A DNA stretch of 64,000 nucleotides from Parcubacteria group bacterium Gr01-1014_38 (GCA_007376145.1 VMFP01000004.1:6988-70987), one strand, 5' to 3'. Counted from the stretch's first letter, positions 31,206 to 39,703 are shown. Program-made: numbers and translations. Notes: generated by a model not told the origin, from the sequence alone.

Positions 31206-32101
31206 ACGCGACGGACGCTCGGCGGCTTCCGTGAAAGTGAGGCGATGAGTGCCGTACCGAGGCTCACTGGCACGAGGGTGGAAAGCCCGATTGCCGCCCA
31301 CCAGCCCTGATGTTTCCACGTGTACCGAAGGGCACTGCGCGAAAACTGCCACGCGCGCCAGAGCGGAGAGACTTGGGCGAACGACGTCGCGCGATCATGG
31401 ACAACCTCCGCAGATGGCGTAAACCACGTTTCCCAGCCGGCCAACTTTGCGCGACGACAGTAGTCCACTTCCTCGAACCAAATCCAATACCCTTCGTCGA
31501 GAAGGCCAATGACGTCAACGACGCCGCGCCGGATGGCGAAGCACGCCCCCATCACTTGGTCAACCTTGGTGTCGCGGCCGTACGGAAAGTCCGCCATTTC
31601 GTAACGGCGTATTGCTGGAAAAGAAGTTTGCAGCCGCGCAAGACGGGTGAGAAGTAAGGCGAGCACGATCGGCGTCGGGAACCGACGAACCGATCGCTGC
31701 AGACTACCATCCGTATTCAGTAATTTCCCACCGACAATGCCGGCTTTCGGGTGAGTCGCAAAGAAGTTCATGAGTGCCGAAAAACTTCCGGGTCGCGGTT
31801 CTGTATCTGGGTTGAGAAGGAGAAGAATGTCGCCGCGTGCTTGCCGAAGGGCGATGTTATTTGCGCGGGCGAAGCCGACGTTTTTCGGAAGTGAAATATG
31901 AGTAAAAGGTTGGTAACTCTCGCGTGCGTGTGTCAGTGAATTATCCCGCGAGGCATTATCCACGACGAAGACTTCGTACTTGAAGGGTACGCACGTAGCT
32001 GCTCCATCCACAACCTTGAGAGCCGCGTACGGCAGCGCATCGAGACATTTCCGGAGCAGTGGTCCGGTATTCCAATTCACGATGATGATGGACAATTTCA
32101 T
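31202..32101 (-). CDS. glycosyltransferase family 2
   Basis: MKLSIIIVNWNTGPLL…VFVVDNASRDNS. Confidence 0.85.
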   Translation of the reverse strand: MKLSIIIVNWNTGPLLRKCLDALPYAALKVVDGAATCVPFKYEVFVVDNASRDNSLTHARESYQPFTHISLPKNVGFARANNIALRQARGDILLLLNPDTEPRPGSFSALMNFFATHPKAGIVGGKLLNTDGSLQRSVRRFPTPIVLALLLTRLARLQTSFPAIRRYEMADFPYGRDTKVDQVMGACFAIRRGVVDVIGLLDEGYWIWFEEVDYCRRAKLAGWETWFTPSAEVVHDRATSFAQVSPLWRAWQFSRSALRYTWKHQGWWAAIGLSTLVPVSLGTALIASLSRKPPSVRRV

Positions 32102-33198
32102 GCGCCTGCTTTTTCAATCACCTCGGCAGTCTGTTCCGCCGCTCGGTCCCACGTGAAGTGAGACGCGCGTACGTGCCCCTTCGCAACCATGTCCTGCCGG
32201 AGTGAGGAATCGCGGAGAATACGGAGGATCGCGCTCGCCATCGCCGACGGATCCGAGGGATCAACAAGAACCGCCGCATTGCCGACAACCTCTGGAAGCG
32301 AGGAAGTGTTCGAAGTAATCACCGGCGTTCCGGCCGCCATTGCTTCTAACACTGGCATACCGAAGCCCTCCGAGAAACTCGGGAGCACAAAGGCAGCAGC
32401 CATGGAGTACAAAGCTGCAAGATCGTCACGTGGAACACGTCGGAGAAGATGAATCGAATTTCGAACGGACGACGTTTCAATCCGAGCGAGAATCTGTGTT
32501 TCTTTCCACTCCCCGCCACCCGCGAAGACGAGATGCACGGCAGGCTCCGAGCGCTTCAGTTCCTCGAACGCAGTGATGAGACCAACAATGTTTTTCCGGG
32601 GTTGGAGCGCCCCAACAAACAACACATATCGCTCAGGAAGCTGGTATCGCTCCCGAATCCCTTCCCTTTCCTCGGCATTCTGAAATTGCTCTTGCGCCAC
32701 TCCGTGATGCACCACGGTGATGTCGGTCGGGGAGCGTCCATACGTACTCACTACATCGTCCTTCGTGTACTGCGAGACGGCGATGAGCTGGGTCGCGTTT
32801 CGCACCGCGTGCCGCGTGAAAAAAAGGAGGAGTGCGCGGTTCGCAAGAGTGTATGTCGCTGGATAATGGATGAACTCGAGATCATGGACCACCGCGACCG
32901 TCTTCATCGTTCGCGGTCGTATGAGAGGCAGCATCTGAATCGGCATGAACAAGACATCCGGCCGATCGCGACGAAGTGCTGCGGCAAAGAATCGCTGCGT
33001 CCAAAACGGACTTCCCGGGACCACACGAATTTCACCTACGATCGTCACTCCACGTGGCGACGCTGGAAGATATGTCGTGACCTCGTGTCCGCGGTCGCGC
33101 AACAGGCGAGAAAGCCGCGGGAGAAGCTCTCCGGCATACACGCTCGGCCCCTCGAAGCGGTCCGCCGCGAGGTCCGAGCCATCAAGCGCAATCCGCAC
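32098..33198 (-). CDS. glycosyltransferase family 4
   Basis: GT4 C-terminal motifs (…PSFSEGFGMPVLEAMAAGTPVITS…). Likely start is GTG at 33198 (VRIALDGSDL…, the typical GT4 MRIALD start); the track's TTG at 33276 is upstream. Confidence 0.8.
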   Translation of the reverse strand: MRIALDGSDLAADRFEGPSVYAGELLPRLSRLLRDRGHEVTTYLPASPRGVTIVGEIRVVPGSPFWTQRFFAAALRRDRPDVLFMPIQMLPLIRPRTMKTVAVVHDLEFIHYPATYTLANRALLLFFTRHAVRNATQLIAVSQYTKDDVVSTYGRSPTDITVVHHGVAQEQFQNAEEREGIRERYQLPERYVLFVGALQPRKNIVGLITAFEELKRSEPAVHLVFAGGGEWKETQILARIETSSVRNSIHLLRRVPRDDLAALYSMAAAFVLPSFSEGFGMPVLEAMAAGTPVITSNTSSLPEVVGNAAVLVDPSDPSAMASAILRILRDSSLRQDMVAKGHVRASHFTWDRAAEQTAEVIEKAGA

Positions 33199-33217
33199 GC
33201 GACGCAGCCTAGGTGAG
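33179..33217. repeat. direct repeat copy 1 (GT4 start region: CCATCAAGCGCAATCCGCACGCGA-N2-NAGCCTAGGNGAG)
   Basis: 39-nt segment spanning the GT4 GTG start; it recurs at 34051-34089 (3 mismatches), and its 21-nt core recurs at 35676-35696. Confidence 0.85.
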
Positions 33218-33320
33218 TTTCTTCCTTTTGACAACGGCTCTATGTGTTGAATGGGTTGAACGGGCCGAGCAACCAATTGACAAAATCCTGTCCGGCAGAT
33301 ATACTGAAAGCACTAAACGT

Positions 33321-33356
33321 GGGGCGGATATTTCGCATGTCCGCCCCGTTTTTATT
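33321..33356 (-). terminator. rho-independent terminator immediately after the NYN stop codon (bidirectional-looking)
   Basis: GGGGCGGA-N11-TCCGCCCC stem (33321-33328 / 33340-33347), flanked by an A-tract upstream and TTTTTATTT downstream on the plus strand. Confidence 0.6.
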
Positions 33357-33987
33357 TCTTGGGCTCCTCGAACCTTAAGGCTTTTTCGAGCCGAACAAAG
33401 TCTCGGAAGTTCGCACCAGCAAATTTGCGGATCTCACGTGCAGTCCTAGAACCACGTGCGAGAATAATGATTTCCTCTCTTTCCTCACGAAGATACTTAA
33501 GGACCGGAAGGAAATCTCCGTCCCCCGAGAGAATAACGGCACGATCAAAATTTTCTTTCTCTTTCATAAGCCGGAAGGCCATATCGACGTCACAATTCGC
33601 TTTGCGTTTCGTGCTGCCGTCGTCCTGGTCGTACAACTTCACGGGTTTTAAGTAGAGCTCGTACCCGAAGCTCTGGAGCTTTCGGTAAAAGCGCACTCGC
33701 TGGAGATGTCGCCCAAGAAGGAGTAATTCCGCCTCGTTGAGTTCTTTGCCTTCGTTCTTAATACGCTCAGTGAGATAGTCTTCCAAGTCTTCAAGCGGTA
33801 CCGACTCAAACGCAAGGTAATCAAACGGAAACGTGTGAATCTCAACCCCACCAAAATACAGCGCGCGGGTTACCCCGTACTTCTTGCGCAGGTACTGCAG
33901 AAGTTTTCGATAATCAATTTTCCAACCAAGACTCTTCTCGCCTCCATAGAAGAGGTTTGATGCATCGATAAACGCAAGTGTTCTCAC
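33352..33987 (-). CDS. NYN-domain (LabA-like, PIN-fold) ribonuclease
   Basis: AFIDASNL…CDVDMA…ILSGDGDF acidic motifs of the NYN family. GTG start at 33987 overlaps the stop of the upstream short ORF (GTGA). AT-rich codon usage. Confidence 0.8.
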   Translation of the reverse strand: MRTLAFIDASNLFYGGEKSLGWKIDYRKLLQYLRKKYGVTRALYFGGVEIHTFPFDYLAFESVPLEDLEDYLTERIKNEGKELNEAELLLLGRHLQRVRFYRKLQSFGYELYLKPVKLYDQDDGSTKRKANCDVDMAFRLMKEKENFDRAVILSGDGDFLPVLKYLREEREEIIILARGSRTAREIRKFAGANFRDFVRLEKALRFEEPKK

Positions 33988-34050
33988 GCCGAGAAGTGTA
34001 ACATTGCTTTGTATTTCGCGTGTGCTATGCCCGCTTCCCTAGATTGCAAC

Positions 34051-34089
34051 CCATCAAGCGCAATCCGCACGCGAGGTAGCCTAGGCGAG
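34051..34089. repeat. direct repeat copy 2 (GT4 start region)
   Basis: Matches copy 1 at 36 of 39 nt. Its in-frame GTG opens a 28-codon ORF (VRIALDGLQSREAGIAHAKYKAMLHFSA*) that is translationally coupled to the NYN gene. Confidence 0.85.
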
Positions 34090-34208
34090 GCTTGCTCTGT
34101 TGGCAACCGACGATCTTGACGTGGGCAGTCCTGCAATATATCCTCGGCGTGGTGTTGTCCTTTCTCACGCCGCAACAAGCGCGGCATAGTTCTCACGGAG
34201 TATGTCAC

Positions 34209-35171
34209 ATGCCTGACCCAAGCACGCAGCGACCACCACACCCTCTCCTAACCCGAGAACTGCGTCTGATCCGGACCTGGAAGGAGTGGAAAAAACTCTG
34301 GGACGAGGAGGTGCATCCGGAACGCCTGCTCGGCCTTCTCCACTTCGGCTTCAATGTCACAGAGTTTGACGCAGGAGAGTGGCCTGAACGAGTTCTCCTC
34401 TACCTTTCCATCGCAGATGGACATGCGTGGGAAATCTCGAAGCCAGGAACGCAGAAATATGAAATCTCCTGGTCAACCTTCGGAAAACCCACGACATGGT
34501 CAAAGGTGCGTCAGCTGATCGCCCAAAAAGCGTTCAAGGAACTCTGTCAGCACCTCTTCAAATACACCCGGTCGCATCATGATGAAGAACCGTCCTGGCT
34601 TCAGCCACTCACCCAGAACTCCTGCCAACTCTTGGATGCGGTACTCGCGTTCTTCCTCCTGCATGACACGCTCGAACCTCAGCTACGCAATCTCCCGCGA
34701 GACGACAAGAGTCATGAGTACGGACTGACCGTCTCCTTCCTCCTCAGCCTGTGTGACTTCGGATGGAAGCTTCGCACGCTCCGCGAGTATGGAGCCGATA
34801 TAGAAGTCGCGGAGAACCTCCGACAGCGCCGTCCGCAGTTCATTCGCGTACTTGCAGGTCTCAAAAGGCTCGATCTCGTGACGACGAAGAGCATGGAACT
34901 CGACGAGGCGGACTGCGACATGCTACGGAAGATCGCACTCGGCACGGAGCTCTACCTCCCCACCGAGCCGAACTGGGGAGAGAAGCACCGGCTTCCAAAA
35001 ACGCTGGAAGAAGCGGTCGCCGGCGGATCTTCTGCAGCCAGACTCCTACTCCTGCATAAGATAAAACTCCAGGAGAAAGCCCGCTTTGCGCAGCTTCGAA
35101 AACTCGCAGCCACGCAGGAAGATGCTTCTCTACAGATCGAACGACTAAAAACTTCGCAGACAAAGTCCTAA
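34209..35171 (+). CDS. hypothetical protein (320 aa), no recognisable domain
   Basis: ATG at 34209 preceded by GGAG. The frame is open from TTG 34092, which would add a hydrophobic N-terminus. Followed by a terminator. Confidence 0.55.
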   Translation: MPDPSTQRPPHPLLTRELRLIRTWKEWKKLWDEEVHPERLLGLLHFGFNVTEFDAGEWPERVLLYLSIADGHAWEISKPGTQKYEISWSTFGKPTTWSKVRQLIAQKAFKELCQHLFKYTRSHHDEEPSWLQPLTQNSCQLLDAVLAFFLLHDTLEPQLRNLPRDDKSHEYGLTVSFLLSLCDFGWKLRTLREYGADIEVAENLRQRRPQFIRVLAGLKRLDLVTTKSMELDEADCDMLRKIALGTELYLPTEPNWGEKHRLPKTLEEAVAGGSSAARLLLLHKIKLQEKARFAQLRKLAATQEDASLQIERLKTSQTKS

Positions 35172-35194
35172 ATGGAGGCACAAATGCAAATGCT

Positions 35195-35222
35195 CCCCGC
35201 CGCAATCGCGACGGGGTTTTTT
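35195..35222 (+). terminator. rho-independent terminator of the 320-aa gene
   Basis: CCCCGCCGC-AATC-GCGACGGGG followed by TTTTTT. Confidence 0.6.
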
Positions 35223-35257
35223 CTTCTCATCGTTGCAATCCTCTGCCCCCCAAAACA

Positions 35258-35297
35258 CGAGTACAAAAGAAACCGCCGCGAGGAAATCCTCGCGGCG
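35258..35297 (-). terminator. rho-independent terminator of the 96-aa minus-strand gene
   Basis: Perfect 10-bp stem CGCCGCGAGG-AAAT-CCTCGCGGCG, with a U-tract on the minus-strand RNA (plus-strand AAAAGAAA at 35264-35271). Confidence 0.55.
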
Positions 35298-35304
35298 TGG
35301 GGGT

Positions 35305-35595
35305 TCACGATTTGGGAAGTCTGACAATACGATTCCCCGCAATCACCCATGGGCTCGGGTCGAAGCGAACAACAAACGACGGGACGGGAGGCCAGGCGCG
35401 AGCAGGATCTTCTTCGATGACTGTCCCGGCAAAGTCCTGCTCGCACTCTTTCTCAACAACATGGGCACTCACCATTCGTATTCCCTTCTCCCCGTGAGGA
35501 TAGATGGCCCCAATCACCCATCCTTCCAGGAGAAGCTCGACGATAGGGGTGCCCGGGAGCACAGAGCGCTCCGCGATTCGGAAATCAATAGGCAT
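35305..35595 (-). CDS. hypothetical protein (96 aa)
   Basis: ORF flanked by a terminator and preceded by repeat copy 3 about 80 nt upstream. Confidence 0.4.
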   Translation of the reverse strand: MPIDFRIAERSVLPGTPIVELLLEGWVIGAIYPHGEKGIRMVSAHVVEKECEQDFAGTVIEEDPARAWPPVPSFVVRFDPSPWVIAGNRIVRLPKS

Positions 35596-35675
35596 CAGTC
35601 TCTCCTTTCAGTGTCTTTCGTTCTGGGGATCGAAGGTGAAATGAACAAGCTACACAAGACGCTCAAAAATCCGAA

Positions 35676-35696
35676 CCATCAAGCGCAATCCGCACG
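35676..35696. repeat. direct repeat copy 3 (21-nt core CCATCAAGCGCAATCCGCACG)
   Basis: Exact 21-nt match to the cores of copies 1 and 2. Encodes a mini-ORF VRIALDGSDF* on the minus strand. Confidence 0.8.
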
Positions 35697-35780
35697 GGCA
35701 CACTCTACGCAGAGCAGCCGTTCCTGACAAGGCACAGGAGAAGATGAAATATTCCTTCCGGCAATTCCTCATTTCCAAGA

Positions 35781-35804
35781 AAAGTGCTTTCATATAAGAG
35801 AGCA
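35781..35804. repeat. palindromic repeat A (AAAGTGCTTTCATATAAGAGAGCA) containing the TrpR-like GTG start
   Basis: Imperfect palindrome TGCTTTCAT/AAGAGAGCA. Matches 36211-36234 at 21 of 24 nt. Confidence 0.8.
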
Positions 35805-36206
35805 GTGAGCAGAACTTACCGAAGAAAACTTGATGCACCACGCGCTCTCACACTGATTGAGCAAACGTTCCACACGGCCTCCCGTCAGAAGAATTTTCGG
35901 CGCTTTCTTACGGAGTTCTTTACCGTGAACGAGCGCGACACTTTTGCTCAACGCCTCCGTATCGCCTGGTTTCTTCATGCGGGCCACAGCTTCCGACTTA
36001 TTCAAGACGAAACGGGTGCCTCGTTTCGTACCATTACGACTCTCGACCGCTGGCTGAAAAAGCAGAATCCGCGCTACCGGCGGATCATTCCGCTCCACAG
36101 ACATAGACACCGAAAGCACGCCGCCCAACGTTTTCCAGGAGACCGGCCATTGCCCGGGAGCATCAAAGCATTCACACGGAGTCTCCTCGGCACGGATATT
36201 CTCTAA
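35784..36206 (+). CDS. TrpR/YerC-YecD-like helix-turn-helix regulator
   Basis: …NERDTFAQRLRIAWFLHAGHSFRLIQDETGASFRTITTLDRWLKK… fits the TrpR-like HTH fold. GTG start lies inside the palindromic repeat. Confidence 0.55.
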   Translation: MLSYKRAVSRTYRRKLDAPRALTLIEQTFHTASRQKNFRRFLTEFFTVNERDTFAQRLRIAWFLHAGHSFRLIQDETGASFRTITTLDRWLKKQNPRYRRIIPLHRHRHRKHAAQRFPGDRPLPGSIKAFTRSLLGTDIL

Positions 36207-36210
36207 ATTC

Positions 36211-36234
36211 AAAGTGCTCTCTTACAAGAGAGCA
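36211..36234. repeat. palindromic repeat B (AAAGTGCTCTCTTACAAGAGAGCA)
   Basis: Perfect 9-bp arms TGCTCTCTT-AC-AAGAGAGCA. Re-encodes VLSYKRA, the first 7 codons of the TrpR-like gene. Confidence 0.8.
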
Positions 36235-36274
36235 CATTCAAGTTTTCTAATTCACGCTACGACCGTCGGGATCG

Positions 36275-37069
36275 CTATTTCCACGCCAGGATGGCCCGGA
36301 CGCTTCTTTCGTCTTTGAGCTTTCCGTTTGGGCTAAGTCCGCGTAGCATCCTCGCTAGTTCCTTTTCAAATATCTTTATCCTGTCTCCGAATAACTCTCT
36401 GCGAGCAAATGATGTGGAGTAGAGATTACCAATGATCTGGTGAATGTTCCGCTCCACGCGCTGTTTATAATTGTGAGTTTCAATCTTCGAAAACGAGCAT
36501 TCCATGATGATGTCCTCAAACCGACGTGTATCAGTGGGAAACGTCCCCGTGCCCGCACGGCGCTCCTCTCCGAGATACGTCTTAACGAGTTTCACGATTC
36601 CTTGCTGCCAGTCCTTATCGCTCTTCCAGATATCCTGGCGGCTCACCACCGCAAGTCCGCCACCCGGCATGAGAAGTTCATAAACCTTTGCAAGAACCTT
36701 TTTCTTCTCCATCCAATGGAGCGCGGTGCCGATCGTCACGAGTCTGAACGAGCCAGGACGGTCTACGTACTCCTCCGCCGTGCTCTTCACCCATGAGATA
36801 TCCCTCGCGCCCGCTTTCGCGGCGCGCTGCTTCCCCTCCTCGATCATATCCGCATCGGGCTCAACTGCCACCACTTCCTCAAAGTCCCTGCACAGCAGCA
36901 CGGCGAGTTCTCCCGTTCCCGTTCCTAAGTCGAGGAGTCGGCCAGTGCCGTCCAGGGAAAATTTCTTTCTGAGCAATTCAAAGAAGCTCTGTGGATACGG
37001 TACTCGATAACGGGCATAGTACCAGGCTGCCCCTCTGAAGAGTGTCTCGTCGTATACGCTCGTGCTCAT
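36275..37069 (-). CDS. class I SAM-dependent methyltransferase
   Basis: Motif I LDLGTGTGELAV and Methyltransf_11-like core. Confidence 0.85.
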   Translation of the reverse strand: MSTSVYDETLFRGAAWYYARYRVPYPQSFFELLRKKFSLDGTGRLLDLGTGTGELAVLLCRDFEEVVAVEPDADMIEEGKQRAAKAGARDISWVKSTAEEYVDRPGSFRLVTIGTALHWMEKKKVLAKVYELLMPGGGLAVVSRQDIWKSDKDWQQGIVKLVKTYLGEERRAGTGTFPTDTRRFEDIIMECSFSKIETHNYKQRVERNIHQIIGNLYSTSFARRELFGDRIKIFEKELARMLRGLSPNGKLKDERSVRAILAWK

Positions 37070-37076
37070 ATAGGGA

Positions 37077-38279
37077 CTAATCGGAAAGAAGATGTTCCAA
37101 CACAGTTACACGCATGTCCCACGTATGGCGCTTGGATTCTGCGATGCGGGCGTCCCTGCCTTCTGCGCCGCGCTCAAGCGCTTCTTGAATGCCGCGGGCG
37201 AACGCGTCCGCAGATGACGTGAGGGTCACAAGGTGGCGGTACGGCTCCAGCGACGGGAGACCAGACGCGACGATGGGTTTTCCGGCGGCGAGAAATTCCC
37301 AAAATTTGAGGGGAAAACTCGCGCGGTTATACGGGCTGTCGCGGTACGGAATGATCGCGACGTCAAACGCGTGCACGTAGCTTGGAACTTCCTCGCGCGG
37401 TTTTGGCCCGAGAAAGTGTACGTTCGAGAGCTGGCCAAGTTTTCGAACGCTTTCCGCGCCGCCGGTTCCGGAATAGTCTACTGGACCGATGAGGACGAAG
37501 TGCCACTCGGGGTGTTCACTGGCGATCTTCTGAAGCAATTCAACATCCACCTTATAGACATCGAGGGCTCCGACGGTCCCAATGCGCGGATGCGGAATGG
37601 CTGCAATATCGCGCGGCTCATGCGCGGGCCTTCCGGAAAACGCTTCAACGTCGGCGGCGTTGGGAACGAGCTGCACATTGCGATGAATTTTTGAGAATCG
37701 TTCAAGGAGTGGCGAAGTCGTCACGGAAATTACAGCCGCGCGCGCCGCAATCGCGCTCTCTTCTTTCTCAACGAGCGCCGAGTTTCTTTCTATCCCGGCT
37801 TGGACGCGATGATCATCCACACAGTCATAGACGACGCGAGACTTCGGAAAGTCATCGAGAAATTCTGCGGCTTCGGTGTCGTAGATCAAGAGGACCGGCT
37901 CTCGAAAACCGAGCTCCCACGCGTGCAAACGGACATGCCACGCATTCCACAGAACGTGATTCAGCCGTCCGACGAAGGGGATTCGGCGTGAACCGGGGAT
38001 GAGATTTGCTTGCGCCTGCACCCAGAGATTCGGCCGCACGCGCTGCGGCGCGACCTGGCGAAGAAGCCAGTGCCAGCCTCCGCCAAGGCTACGGCCGGTC
38101 TTCGACCAGCGGCCCCCGGGATACCGAAAGAGCATCCGAAGAAGAAACAGACGCGGTTCCACGTAGAGCACGCGCCAGCCGCGTTCGGCCAAACTCGTCG
38201 CAATGTGCTGGCGATTTGTCCAGAGCGGCGCGTCATAGAGCGCGCCGGCGAAGACGATGACGTCTTTCGAGTGATTCAT
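37077..38279 (-). CDS. glycosyltransferase family 4 (GT-B)
   Basis: C-terminal GT-B signature …FDVAIIPYRDSPYNRASFPLKFWEFLAAGKPIVAS…. Confidence 0.75.
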   Translation of the reverse strand: MNHSKDVIVFAGALYDAPLWTNRQHIATSLAERGWRVLYVEPRLFLLRMLFRYPGGRWSKTGRSLGGGWHWLLRQVAPQRVRPNLWVQAQANLIPGSRRIPFVGRLNHVLWNAWHVRLHAWELGFREPVLLIYDTEAAEFLDDFPKSRVVYDCVDDHRVQAGIERNSALVEKEESAIAARAAVISVTTSPLLERFSKIHRNVQLVPNAADVEAFSGRPAHEPRDIAAIPHPRIGTVGALDVYKVDVELLQKIASEHPEWHFVLIGPVDYSGTGGAESVRKLGQLSNVHFLGPKPREEVPSYVHAFDVAIIPYRDSPYNRASFPLKFWEFLAAGKPIVASGLPSLEPYRHLVTLTSSADAFARGIQEALERGAEGRDARIAESKRHTWDMRVTVLEHLLSD

Positions 38280-39703
38280 GCGGGGGAAACGAACAACCGC
38301 CGGGCGCGGTGGATCAGCACGGGAAACGCCACGACGACAATCCAGACCGCGATGCCCGCAAAGAGCGCGGCGCGCGCAGCGAGCGGTAGCGGAACAAACG
38401 CCGTCGCCGCCCCTGCCGCGATGACCGGAAGAAGCAAGGTGCGCGGGAAGAGCGAGAGGTGCATGCGGAAGGCAGAAATCCCAATTGCAGTCGCGAGCCC
38501 AACCAGAGCGCCAAGGAGCAGTCCAAGATTCGCAGCGCCTTCGGGCATCTGCCGAAGCGTAAGCATGACTCCAAGCGTCCCAACAGCCATCACGCCAAAT
38601 CCCGCGGCACGGAAGTTCGCACGACGCGCGGGAACAAACACCGTATTCGACGCGATATCCAGAAACGCAAACGCGGCGTAGGCCCAGGTCACAGCGGGAA
38701 TGAACCGGAGTGCCCCAAGATACTGCTGACCGGCGAGGATCGGCACCAGCTCGCGCGCGAACAGCACAAGGAAGAGACCACCGAGCAGCGTCACGGCACC
38801 TACGTCCTCGAGGGTACGCACCGCGAGGCGGCGGAATGCCTCACGGCTTTGGGCAAATGCTTTACTCAAGAACGCCAGGTTCACTTCACCAAGCGCCGCG
38901 GCGAGCAGCTGAAGCTTCGACCCAAAGGTTGTTGCCGCGGTGAACAGCCCGACAACCTCGGGACTCACCCACCGCCCGAGGAGGAGAATGGGCACGCGCT
39001 GCCAGACCACGGAAAGAATGCGCGCCACGTAGGTCCATGCCCCTGTATGAAGAATGTCAGCGAGTACGCCGCGGACCTCCGCCGGTGGCGGATGCGCGAG
39101 GGTCCCGCCGAGTGCCCGCCGCAGAAATAGGGCGAGGAGTGTACTAAAGATGAGCGCCGCCAGAATGACCGCCTCAAAGAATCCGTTCAGGTCTCGCCAC
39201 CAGACGAGCCCCGCAAAGATCGGCACGTTTACGACGGCCGTGATGAGTTGGAGAGCGTACAGCGTCCCGAAGGCGCGCTGCCCGGTGTACGCGCCGCCGA
39301 GAATCCCTTGCATGCCATGGAGGATGAGAATGAGGCTCATGAGACGCACCAAGTGCGGAATCTCGGGGAATGGGTAGAGCCGCGTGCCGATCCATGTTGC
39401 TGCGAGAGCGAGGAGCACCGAAATCGGCACCGTGATCAGGAGCCGAAACCACAGCGAGACCCAGAAGACCGCAGCTTTCCGCTGCGGCGTGTCGGCCACG
39501 GCGATTTCGCGGATCGCCGCATCCACCGCGCCGACGTGCTGCGAGACGCCGACGAGCGCGCCGAGGGAGATGACAATCCCAACAATTCCGTACGCTTCGG
39601 GACCGAGGAGCCGGAGGACAATCGCGGTTTGCACGATGCCGAGCGCCGCCGTCGCCACTTTGGTGAGAACCCCCCAAATTTGGACCGTCCGAATGTCAGT
39701 CAT
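38276..39703 (-). CDS. Wzx-like oligosaccharide flippase (MOP superfamily)
   Basis: About 14 predicted TM helices; N-terminal flippase-like segment. Confidence 0.75.
   Translation of the reverse strand: MTDIRTVQIWGVLTKVATAALGIVQTAIVLRLLGPEAYGIVGIVISLGALVGVSQHVGAVDAAIREIAVADTPQRKAAVFWVSLWFRLLITVPISVLLALAATWIGTRLYPFPEIPHLVRLMSLILILHGMQGILGGAYTGQRAFGTLYALQLITAVVNVPIFAGLVWWRDLNGFFEAVILAALIFSTLLALFLRRALGGTLAHPPPAEVRGVLADILHTGAWTYVARILSVVWQRVPILLLGRWVSPEVVGLFTAATTFGSKLQLLAAALGEVNLAFLSKAFAQSREAFRRLAVRTLEDVGAVTLLGGLFLVLFARELVPILAGQQYLGALRFIPAVTWAYAAFAFLDIASNTVFVPARRANFRAAGFGVMAVGTLGVMLTLRQMPEGAANLGLLLGALVGLATAIGISAFRMHLSLFPRTLLLPVIAAGAATAFVPLPLAARAALFAGIAVWIVVVAFPVLIHRARRLFVSPA

Follow-up and report, generated by a model that had tools for sequence, protein, structure and literature searches.

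A 28-codon leader ORF overlapping the start of a NYN nuclease gene in Parcubacteria group bacterium Gr01-1014_38 is probably an insertion scar

In type I toxin-antitoxin systems of the txpA/RatA and bsrG/SR4 kind of B. subtilis, a convergent antisense RNA lies over the 3' end of the toxin gene. Termination and reinitiation couple the translation of adjacent genes when the stop codon of one overlaps the start codon of the next in ATGA or GTGA. Integrating elements leave direct repeats of host DNA at their ends, either as the TSDs of transposons or as the gene end that is restored by an incoming island. In mycobacteria, leaderless short ORFs head polycistronic mRNAs (PMC4633059; 10.1101/834739), and in a synthetic leaderless bicistronic design for C. 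glutamicum, an SD within the fore-cistron is required for strength (PMC10367133).

The locus described here has some features in common with each of these systems. It lies in a window of 64,000 nucleotides from Parcubacteria group bacterium Gr01-1014_38 (GCA_007376145.1 VMFP01000004.1:6988-70987), which is the whole stretch of DNA that was analysed. An earlier note on this DNA had proposed that a start module captured from a glycosyltransferase gene (GT4) opens a 28-codon ORF and drives the translation of a downstream NYN nuclease gene by coupling. Our analysis suggests instead that the 28-codon ORF is probably the scar of an insertion and that the NYN gene runs from its own leaderless-type promoter. 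Loci and contigs used for comparison are given by L numbers.

The duplicated GT4 start and the 28-codon ORF

The features of the region are as follows.
32098 to 33198, minus strand: gene for the GT4 glycosyltransferase, 366 aa (Pfam Glycos_transf_1, E = 1.4e-41)
33179 to 33235, minus strand: copy 1 of the repeat, with -35 TTGTCA (33234-33229), -10 TAGGCT (33211-33206), 7 nt and GTG at 33198
33236 to 34050, minus strand: inserted segment of 815 bp, consisting of the NYN gene with its leader, a small-RNA gene and about 40 nt of filler
33352 to 33987, minus strand: gene for the NYN-domain protein, 211 aa (Pfam PF01936, E = 1.4e-18)
33984 to 34070, minus strand: 28-codon relic or leader ORF, from GTG (34070-34068) to TGA (33986-33984)
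33995 to 34003, minus strand: extended -10 of the NYN gene, TG (34003-34002), t and TACACT (34000-33995), ending 7 nt before GTG at 33987
34071 to 34107, minus strand: promoter-like part of copy 2, with -35 TTGCCA (34106-34101), a 17-nt spacer, -10 TAGGCT (34083-34078) and a 7-nt discriminator
34209 to 35171, plus strand: divergent gene for a 320-aa protein, called in L001, the ancestral neighbour of GT4
35663 to 35730, minus strand: copy 3, with TTGTCA-17-TAGAGT (35730-35702) followed by a 27-nt copy of the GT4 start (26 of 27 nt identical)

The 5' end of GT4 is duplicated in copies 1 and 2, which are alike over 57 nt with 81% identity. The window contains the 20-mer GTGCGGATTGCGCTTGATGG at three places, always on the minus strand (33198-33179, 34070-34051 and 35695-35676), against 0 occurrences expected from shuffles. 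The GTG at 33198 in copy 1 is the working start of GT4. The arrangement TTGyCA-17-TAGrCT-7-GTG is kept in four GT4 orthologs, namely copy 1, L111, L112 and L002, with amino acid identities of 70-74% (74% for L111, and 70% for L112 and L002), and the hexamers and spacings of copy 2 match those of all four. In both copies of the window, TAGGCT ends 7 nt before GTG and no SD is present. These results suggest that the repeat is a promoter-like element joined to a leaderless-type GT4 start. Only 3 of the 6 positions of TAGGCT agree with the -10 consensus of E. coli, and neither copy was reported by the consensus scan; the promoter assignment is based on conservation across four genomes, not on consensus strength. 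Over the first 32 nt of GT4, the window (33167-33198, minus strand) and L111 (2399-2430, minus strand) do not differ at all, with proteins of only 74% identity, which suggests a nucleotide-level constraint at the 5' end of a putatively leaderless GT4 mRNA.

The region upstream of copy 2 (34071-34209) aligns over its full length with the region upstream of GT4 in L002, and this alignment takes in the divergent promoter of the 320-aa gene. In L002, L111 and L112, a homolog of the 320-aa gene is directly divergent from GT4, with a single promoter and start and with no NYN gene there. Because the flank is orthologous to that of L002 and the sites of L002, L111 and L112 are empty, copy 2 is the GT4 promoter and start from which the duplicate was made, still at the ancestral position, and copy 1 is the duplicate that restores GT4. 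Contrary to what the earlier note had supposed, the start module in copy 2 was not captured. In their promoter parts, copies 1 and 2 differ from L111 at 6 and 7 of 37 nt, respectively, and from each other at 11 of 37. Copy 1 may have arrived with donor DNA, and these numbers fit equally well with divergence after duplication. For the same reason, the perfect core of copy 2 is not readable as selection.

The GTG of the GT4 start is kept in copy 2 and opens the 28-codon ORF, as had been noticed earlier; read from 34070-34068 on the minus strand, its 28 sense codons give VRIALDGLQSREAGIAHAKYKAMLHFSA. The first 20 nt of this ORF are the GT4 start (core 34070-34051) and the other codons come from the inserted DNA, the insertion point lying after GT4 nucleotide 20, at about codon 7 (between ...GATGG and CTCGG...). 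The peptide is a chimera that is unique to the Gr01-1014_38 genome and has no family match in Pfam. Contig L001 is 100% identical to the window and hence does not count as an independent strain for conservation. The predicted RNA fold of the leader is no better than that of shuffles (z = -0.2, MFE). A leader-peptide attenuator was considered and rejected, because the peptide is not conserved, its composition is not sensor-like and the fold has this z of -0.2. An 85-aa ORF at 33984-34241 was also rejected as a gene, in agreement with the earlier suspicion that it is not independent. It has no Pfam match, is not called in the public assembly and is merely the frame of the 28-codon ORF run further upstream, where its 5' part is antisense to the divergent 320-aa gene and to the ancestral intergenic region.

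Copy 3 likewise has the -10 at a leaderless distance (TAGAGT-6-GTG). It is located at +1 of the promoter of a conserved 96-aa gene, the product of which is 68% identical to the L111 protein, and opens a 10-codon ORF (VRIALDGSDF) within the leader of this gene, ahead of its SD. The 27-mer is absent from the orthologous promoter and leader in L111. A longer homology of copy 3 to GT4 was rejected, because the alignment extends over 27 nt only. Gene conversion may be the origin of copy 3, and we pose this as a question. Divergent from copy 3 is a TrpR/YerC-like gene (35784-36206, plus strand; Pfam E = 2e-15), which is bracketed by an imperfect inverted repeat of 24 nt with 83% complementarity (35781-35804 and 36215-36238). 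The public gene call for L001 at this position is a 140-aa gene on the opposite strand with no family match.

Start signals of the NYN gene and readings of the overlap

The NYN protein matches PF01936 with 68.3 bits, against a curated cut-off of 24.2 bits. It has 2956 homologs, the best 120 of which are 70-100% identical and are distributed over several CPR lineages. No named family is found for it in NCBIfam, PADLOC gives generic NYN matches only, and the sole match in PDB is a remote one to 2qip. Homologs are absent from phages, and plasmids yield only NYN proteins of about 30% identity. The NYN frame has no start codon other than the GTG at 33987, which corresponds to residue 1 in an alignment with more than 50 homologs.

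None of GGAG, GAGG and AGGA is present within 20 nt upstream of this GTG, so that the earlier observation that NYN has no SD of its own holds. An independent SD together with a promoter had been named as the finding that would speak against coupling. The SD is absent, and a promoter-like element is present, TGtTACACT placed 7 nt before GTG, as in a leaderless gene. Besides TG, this -10 matches the consensus at only 4 of 6 positions; no -35 accompanies it, and it went unreported by the consensus scan. The same placement is found in the family. Of 70 distinct regions upstream of homologs, 47 have a -10-like hexamer whose end is 5-9 nt from the start, with a peak at 6-7 nt and with TG in 31 of the 47, against about 1-3 matches at each of the other positions, and an SD core is found in just three of the 70. 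L064 (TGcTACACT-6-GTG) and L028 (TGcTACAAT-7-GTG) are near-copies of the layout in the window. The missing SD is a family trait of a leaderless-type gene and not a sign that coupling is needed, because the -10 placement is so frequent (47/70) and the SD so rare (3/70) in this family. The GT4 orthologs and the 47 of 70 NYN loci, with the -10 at 6-8 nt, suggest that at least some CPR genes use leaderless initiation.

In an ORF survey of the window, SD cores are rare before likely gene starts, and adjacent genes overlap by 4 nt at several places, for example at 32098-32101, 38276-38279 and 39700-39703. In this survey start assignment is uncertain and -10-like hexamers are only about twice as frequent as roughly expected; ortholog conservation was relied on instead, because the starts are too uncertain. 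The Gr01-1014_38 genome seems to rely little on SD-led initiation, and the sparse SD and frequent stop-start overlaps suggest that SD-free reinitiation may be routine in it.

The TGA of the 28-codon ORF overlaps the NYN GTG (33987-33985) on the same strand, in GTGA at 33987-33984, as the earlier note had seen. This TGA is supplied by the NYN start together with the second codon (AAA or AGA), and nTGA is found in 64 of 69 distinct homolog starts. The 63-nt leader between the GT4 core and the NYN start is open in just one of three frames, namely that which terminates at the NYN start. Because the TGA is intrinsic to the NYN start and only one leader frame is open, an upstream start codon at random phase gives the GTGA overlap with a probability of about 1/3. 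The repeat far exceeds what chance would produce, unlike the stop-start overlap. Upstream ORFs of at least 25 codons that end at the NYN nTGA are found at 6 of 56 homolog loci, and are not commoner than in a control frame (7 of 61). The overlap is neither conserved nor enriched among homologs; one or the other would be expected if selection maintained it. These numbers argue against taking the geometry as a sign of selection. Coupling of NYN to the relic start is possible, and is neither required nor supported by the sequences compared.

The order of events that we favour is as follows. An 815-bp cassette, carrying a leaderless NYN gene and a convergent RNA of about 45 nt, would have entered the GT4 gene, and 57 bp with the GT4 promoter and first codons would have ended up on both sides of the insert. 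The GT4 start of copy 2 would now read into the cassette and halt at the TGA supplied by the NYN start itself, and copy 1, downstream, would keep GT4 intact. NYN would be expressed like its relatives, from its own extended -10 located 7 nt before GTG, as a leaderless mRNA for which an SD is not needed. Copy 2 may well still fire, its hexamers and 23-nt core being intact. If so, the relic promoter would give a longer transcript, and termination and reinitiation at GTGA could add some NYN translation, as an accessory route and not as a designed one.

It is rather unlikely that copy 2 is instead the main driver of NYN, by way of a transcript with a 5'-terminal GUG, translation of 28 codons to the UGA in GUGA and reinitiation on the NYN GUG. 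The stop-start geometry is as this reading requires, of the three leader frames only the coupling one is open, and the hexamers of copy 2 are the same as those of the working orthologs. Other cassettes also lean on host promoters or relic starts (L098, L069/L089 and L053/L095), mycobacteria have operons that begin with a leaderless short ORF (PMC4633059; 10.1101/834739), and a leaderless fore-cistron works in C. glutamicum (PMC10367133). However, NYN has a family-typical -10 of its own at the leaderless distance, and the overlap arises with a probability of about 1/3 from an intrinsic TGA and is not enriched among homologs. The C. glutamicum fore-cistron needed an internal SD for strength, whereas none is present here, and the arrangement is found in no second genome, L001 being identical to the window.

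It is improbable that copy 2 is silent in both transcription and translation, so that the 28-codon ORF is never made. Beyond the geometry nothing argues for a function of this ORF, the peptide is without a family match and the leader has no special structure. However, copy 2 has retained its hexamers, spacing, GTG and core intact and in the same form as the working copies, and no cause of silencing is visible.

The least probable reading is that the 23-27-nt core of the three copies is a cis-regulatory element that co-regulates GT4, NYN and the 96-aa gene, with the short ORFs incidental. Such an element might act at the 5' end of the mRNA, or as an operator at +1 to which, for instance, the neighbouring TrpR-like protein would bind. 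This reading would account for a core with 100% identity between copies 1 and 2 and L111 over 20-32 nt, unlike the promoter spacers, which differ by 16-30%, and the GT4 proteins, which are only 74% identical, and also for copy 3 as a clean 27-nt copy within an otherwise orthologous promoter and leader with a TrpR-family gene divergent from it. Against this reading, the core is not palindromic, L002 and L112 differ from it at no fewer than 5 of 20 positions, and recent copying would account for its identity just as well, as would recombination requiring about 24 nt of identical sequence.

The NYN and small-RNA cassette at other loci

The second gene of the inserted segment is convergent with NYN.
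33277 to 33357, plus strand: small-RNA gene, about 45 nt, with -35 TTGACA (33277-33282) and -10 TATACT (33300-33305)
33312 to 33321, plus strand: conserved ACUAAACGUG of the small RNA
33321 to 33347, plus strand: 11-bp hairpin of the small RNA, followed by a U run that reaches the NYN stop codon

The promoter of the small RNA (TTGACA-17-TATACT) is near-consensus, with a score of 11/12, and a terminator is called. The small RNA is found beside every NYN homolog examined (80 metagenomic loci and 4 others, with 67-84% amino acid identity). Among 60 distinct sequences, 99.7% of the hairpin positions pair and compensatory changes are seen in 9 of the 11 pairs. From an invariant U.G pair, the small-RNA strand is the one on which the structure is selected. 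The hairpin comes in three sequence flavours, and ACUAAACGUG is invariant. In the homologs, the hairpin and U run lie directly against the NYN stop codon or over it. A scan of 32500-36500 against Rfam gives no match at E <= 1.

The 815-bp segment lies between copies 1 and 2. It is bounded by direct repeats of host DNA and the corresponding sites in L002, L111 and L112 are single-copy and empty, as is the case for the insertion of a mobile element. NYN is the only protein encoded in the insert, in which no recombinase is found by Pfam, NCBIfam or PADLOC, and the duplication is not of fixed length. Cassettes that are 90-99% identical in DNA are present between unrelated flanks in the pairs L092/L109, L069/L089, L087/L089, L053/L095 and L072/L080. 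At the right edge, the common DNA always ends at the -35 of the small RNA (...TTGTCAATAG). The left edge is variable, its distance upstream of the NYN start ranging from 1 to about 138 nt.

Flanking repeats in the same orientation, of 39-158 nt and with 82-99% identity, are found at 12 of 65 loci, against 2 of 100 shifted control segments. Their length is 27-158 nt across loci, and the window is a further case with 57 bp.
Loci with flanking host repeats: L045, L095, L106, L057, L065, L068, L046, L042, L098, L055, L082 and the window (33179-33235 and 34051-34107)
The target genes of the cassette differ between loci. The repeat is the 5' end of ychF in L098, the promoter regions of ychF and murI in L106 and L057, and the 3' ends of genes in L045 and L095. 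As judged from these comparisons, the cassette is mobile in an evolutionary sense. Candidates for the origin of the duplication are a staggered cut, a crossover of a circle in the 24-nt identical core, and homology-facilitated illegitimate recombination.

In L098 (2403-2500), the NYN gene comes 13 nt after a relic ychF start (MSPSIGIVGLPNAGK...) and has an N-terminal extension as well as a GAGGA SD; L100 and L107 carry NYN-cassette DNA that is identical to that of L098. The cassette of L098 appears to be expressed from this captured host start region. In the pairs L069/L089 and L053/L095, the common cassette DNA begins only 5 or 1 nt before ATG. Promoter capture appears to be a real habit of the NYN and RNA cassette, because of the relic start and SD in L098 and the edges at ATG in these two pairs.

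In L065 (1-2256), a repeated segment is present in three copies (1-152, 921-1025 and 1841-1871/2144-2252), which separate the NYN and RNA cassette from a different NYN-like gene (1191-1817) with a weak match to TIGR00288. This layout is like a cassette array and is reminiscent of the three copies in the window. The hairpin GAAGTCGGACTTC beside the cassette in L057 and L095 was considered as a terminal element and rejected, being a repeat of the L057 genome that is absent from the other loci.

It is conceivable, although we hold this view only tentatively, that the NYN gene and its RNA of about 45 nt form an undescribed, transposase-less mobile module of CPR bacteria. Such a module would insert itself, by the nuclease and/or the RNA, at promoter-proximal gene ends, make duplications of 27-158 bp and use host promoters or leaderless starts, and the 28-codon ORF would be one of its footprints. 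Among the papers accessible to the literature search, none links CPR NYN proteins with a small RNA or with mobility. The leader ORF alone is ordinary, a small curiosity that may or may not feed ribosomes to NYN. It is the cassette that makes the locus notable, with an NYN protein that is 67-84% identical across many CPR lineages. Should the cassette be capable of moving on its own, genome-reduced bacteria would harbour a new type of small element, mobile or selfish. The window provides a clean pair of filled and empty sites for the study of the cassette.

Comparison with known systems

The 28-codon ORF and NYN resemble gene pairs coupled by termination and reinitiation at ATGA or GTGA in the 4-nt GTGA overlap, in lying on the same strand and in the lack of an SD before the downstream gene. 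They differ from such pairs in that the upstream cistron is a chimera of 28 codons made by an insertion and not a gene, a promoter-like element of the downstream gene lies inside this cistron, and the overlap is neither conserved nor enriched in the NYN family.

The leaderless ORFs of mycobacteria and C. glutamicum are alike in having a -10 a few nucleotides before GTG or ATG and a short first ORF, from which the downstream gene could take the ribosomes that finish it. Those ORFs, either conserved or engineered, have sensor codons or a fore-cistron SD. In contrast, the 28-codon ORF has no SD, no sensor-like composition, no significant leader structure and no conservation.

The cassette is similar to integrating elements, both transposons with TSDs and islands that restore gene ends, in the direct repeats of host DNA, the single-copy site in relatives and the host gene that is kept whole. 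It differs from them in that the 815 bp encode no transposase or integrase, the repeat is long, diverged (81%) and of variable length (27-158 bp, and 57 bp in the window), and the targets vary by locus.

The NYN gene and its small RNA share with type I toxin-antitoxin systems a convergent small RNA with its own strong promoter that overlaps the mRNA of the protein, a terminator hairpin over the gene end, compactness, varied contexts and horizontal mobility. However, the protein is a 211-aa NYN nuclease and not a small membrane peptide, and the conserved ACUAAACGUG of the small RNA is located outside the overlap. By this analogy, the pair would resemble a type I toxin-antitoxin system in architecture only.
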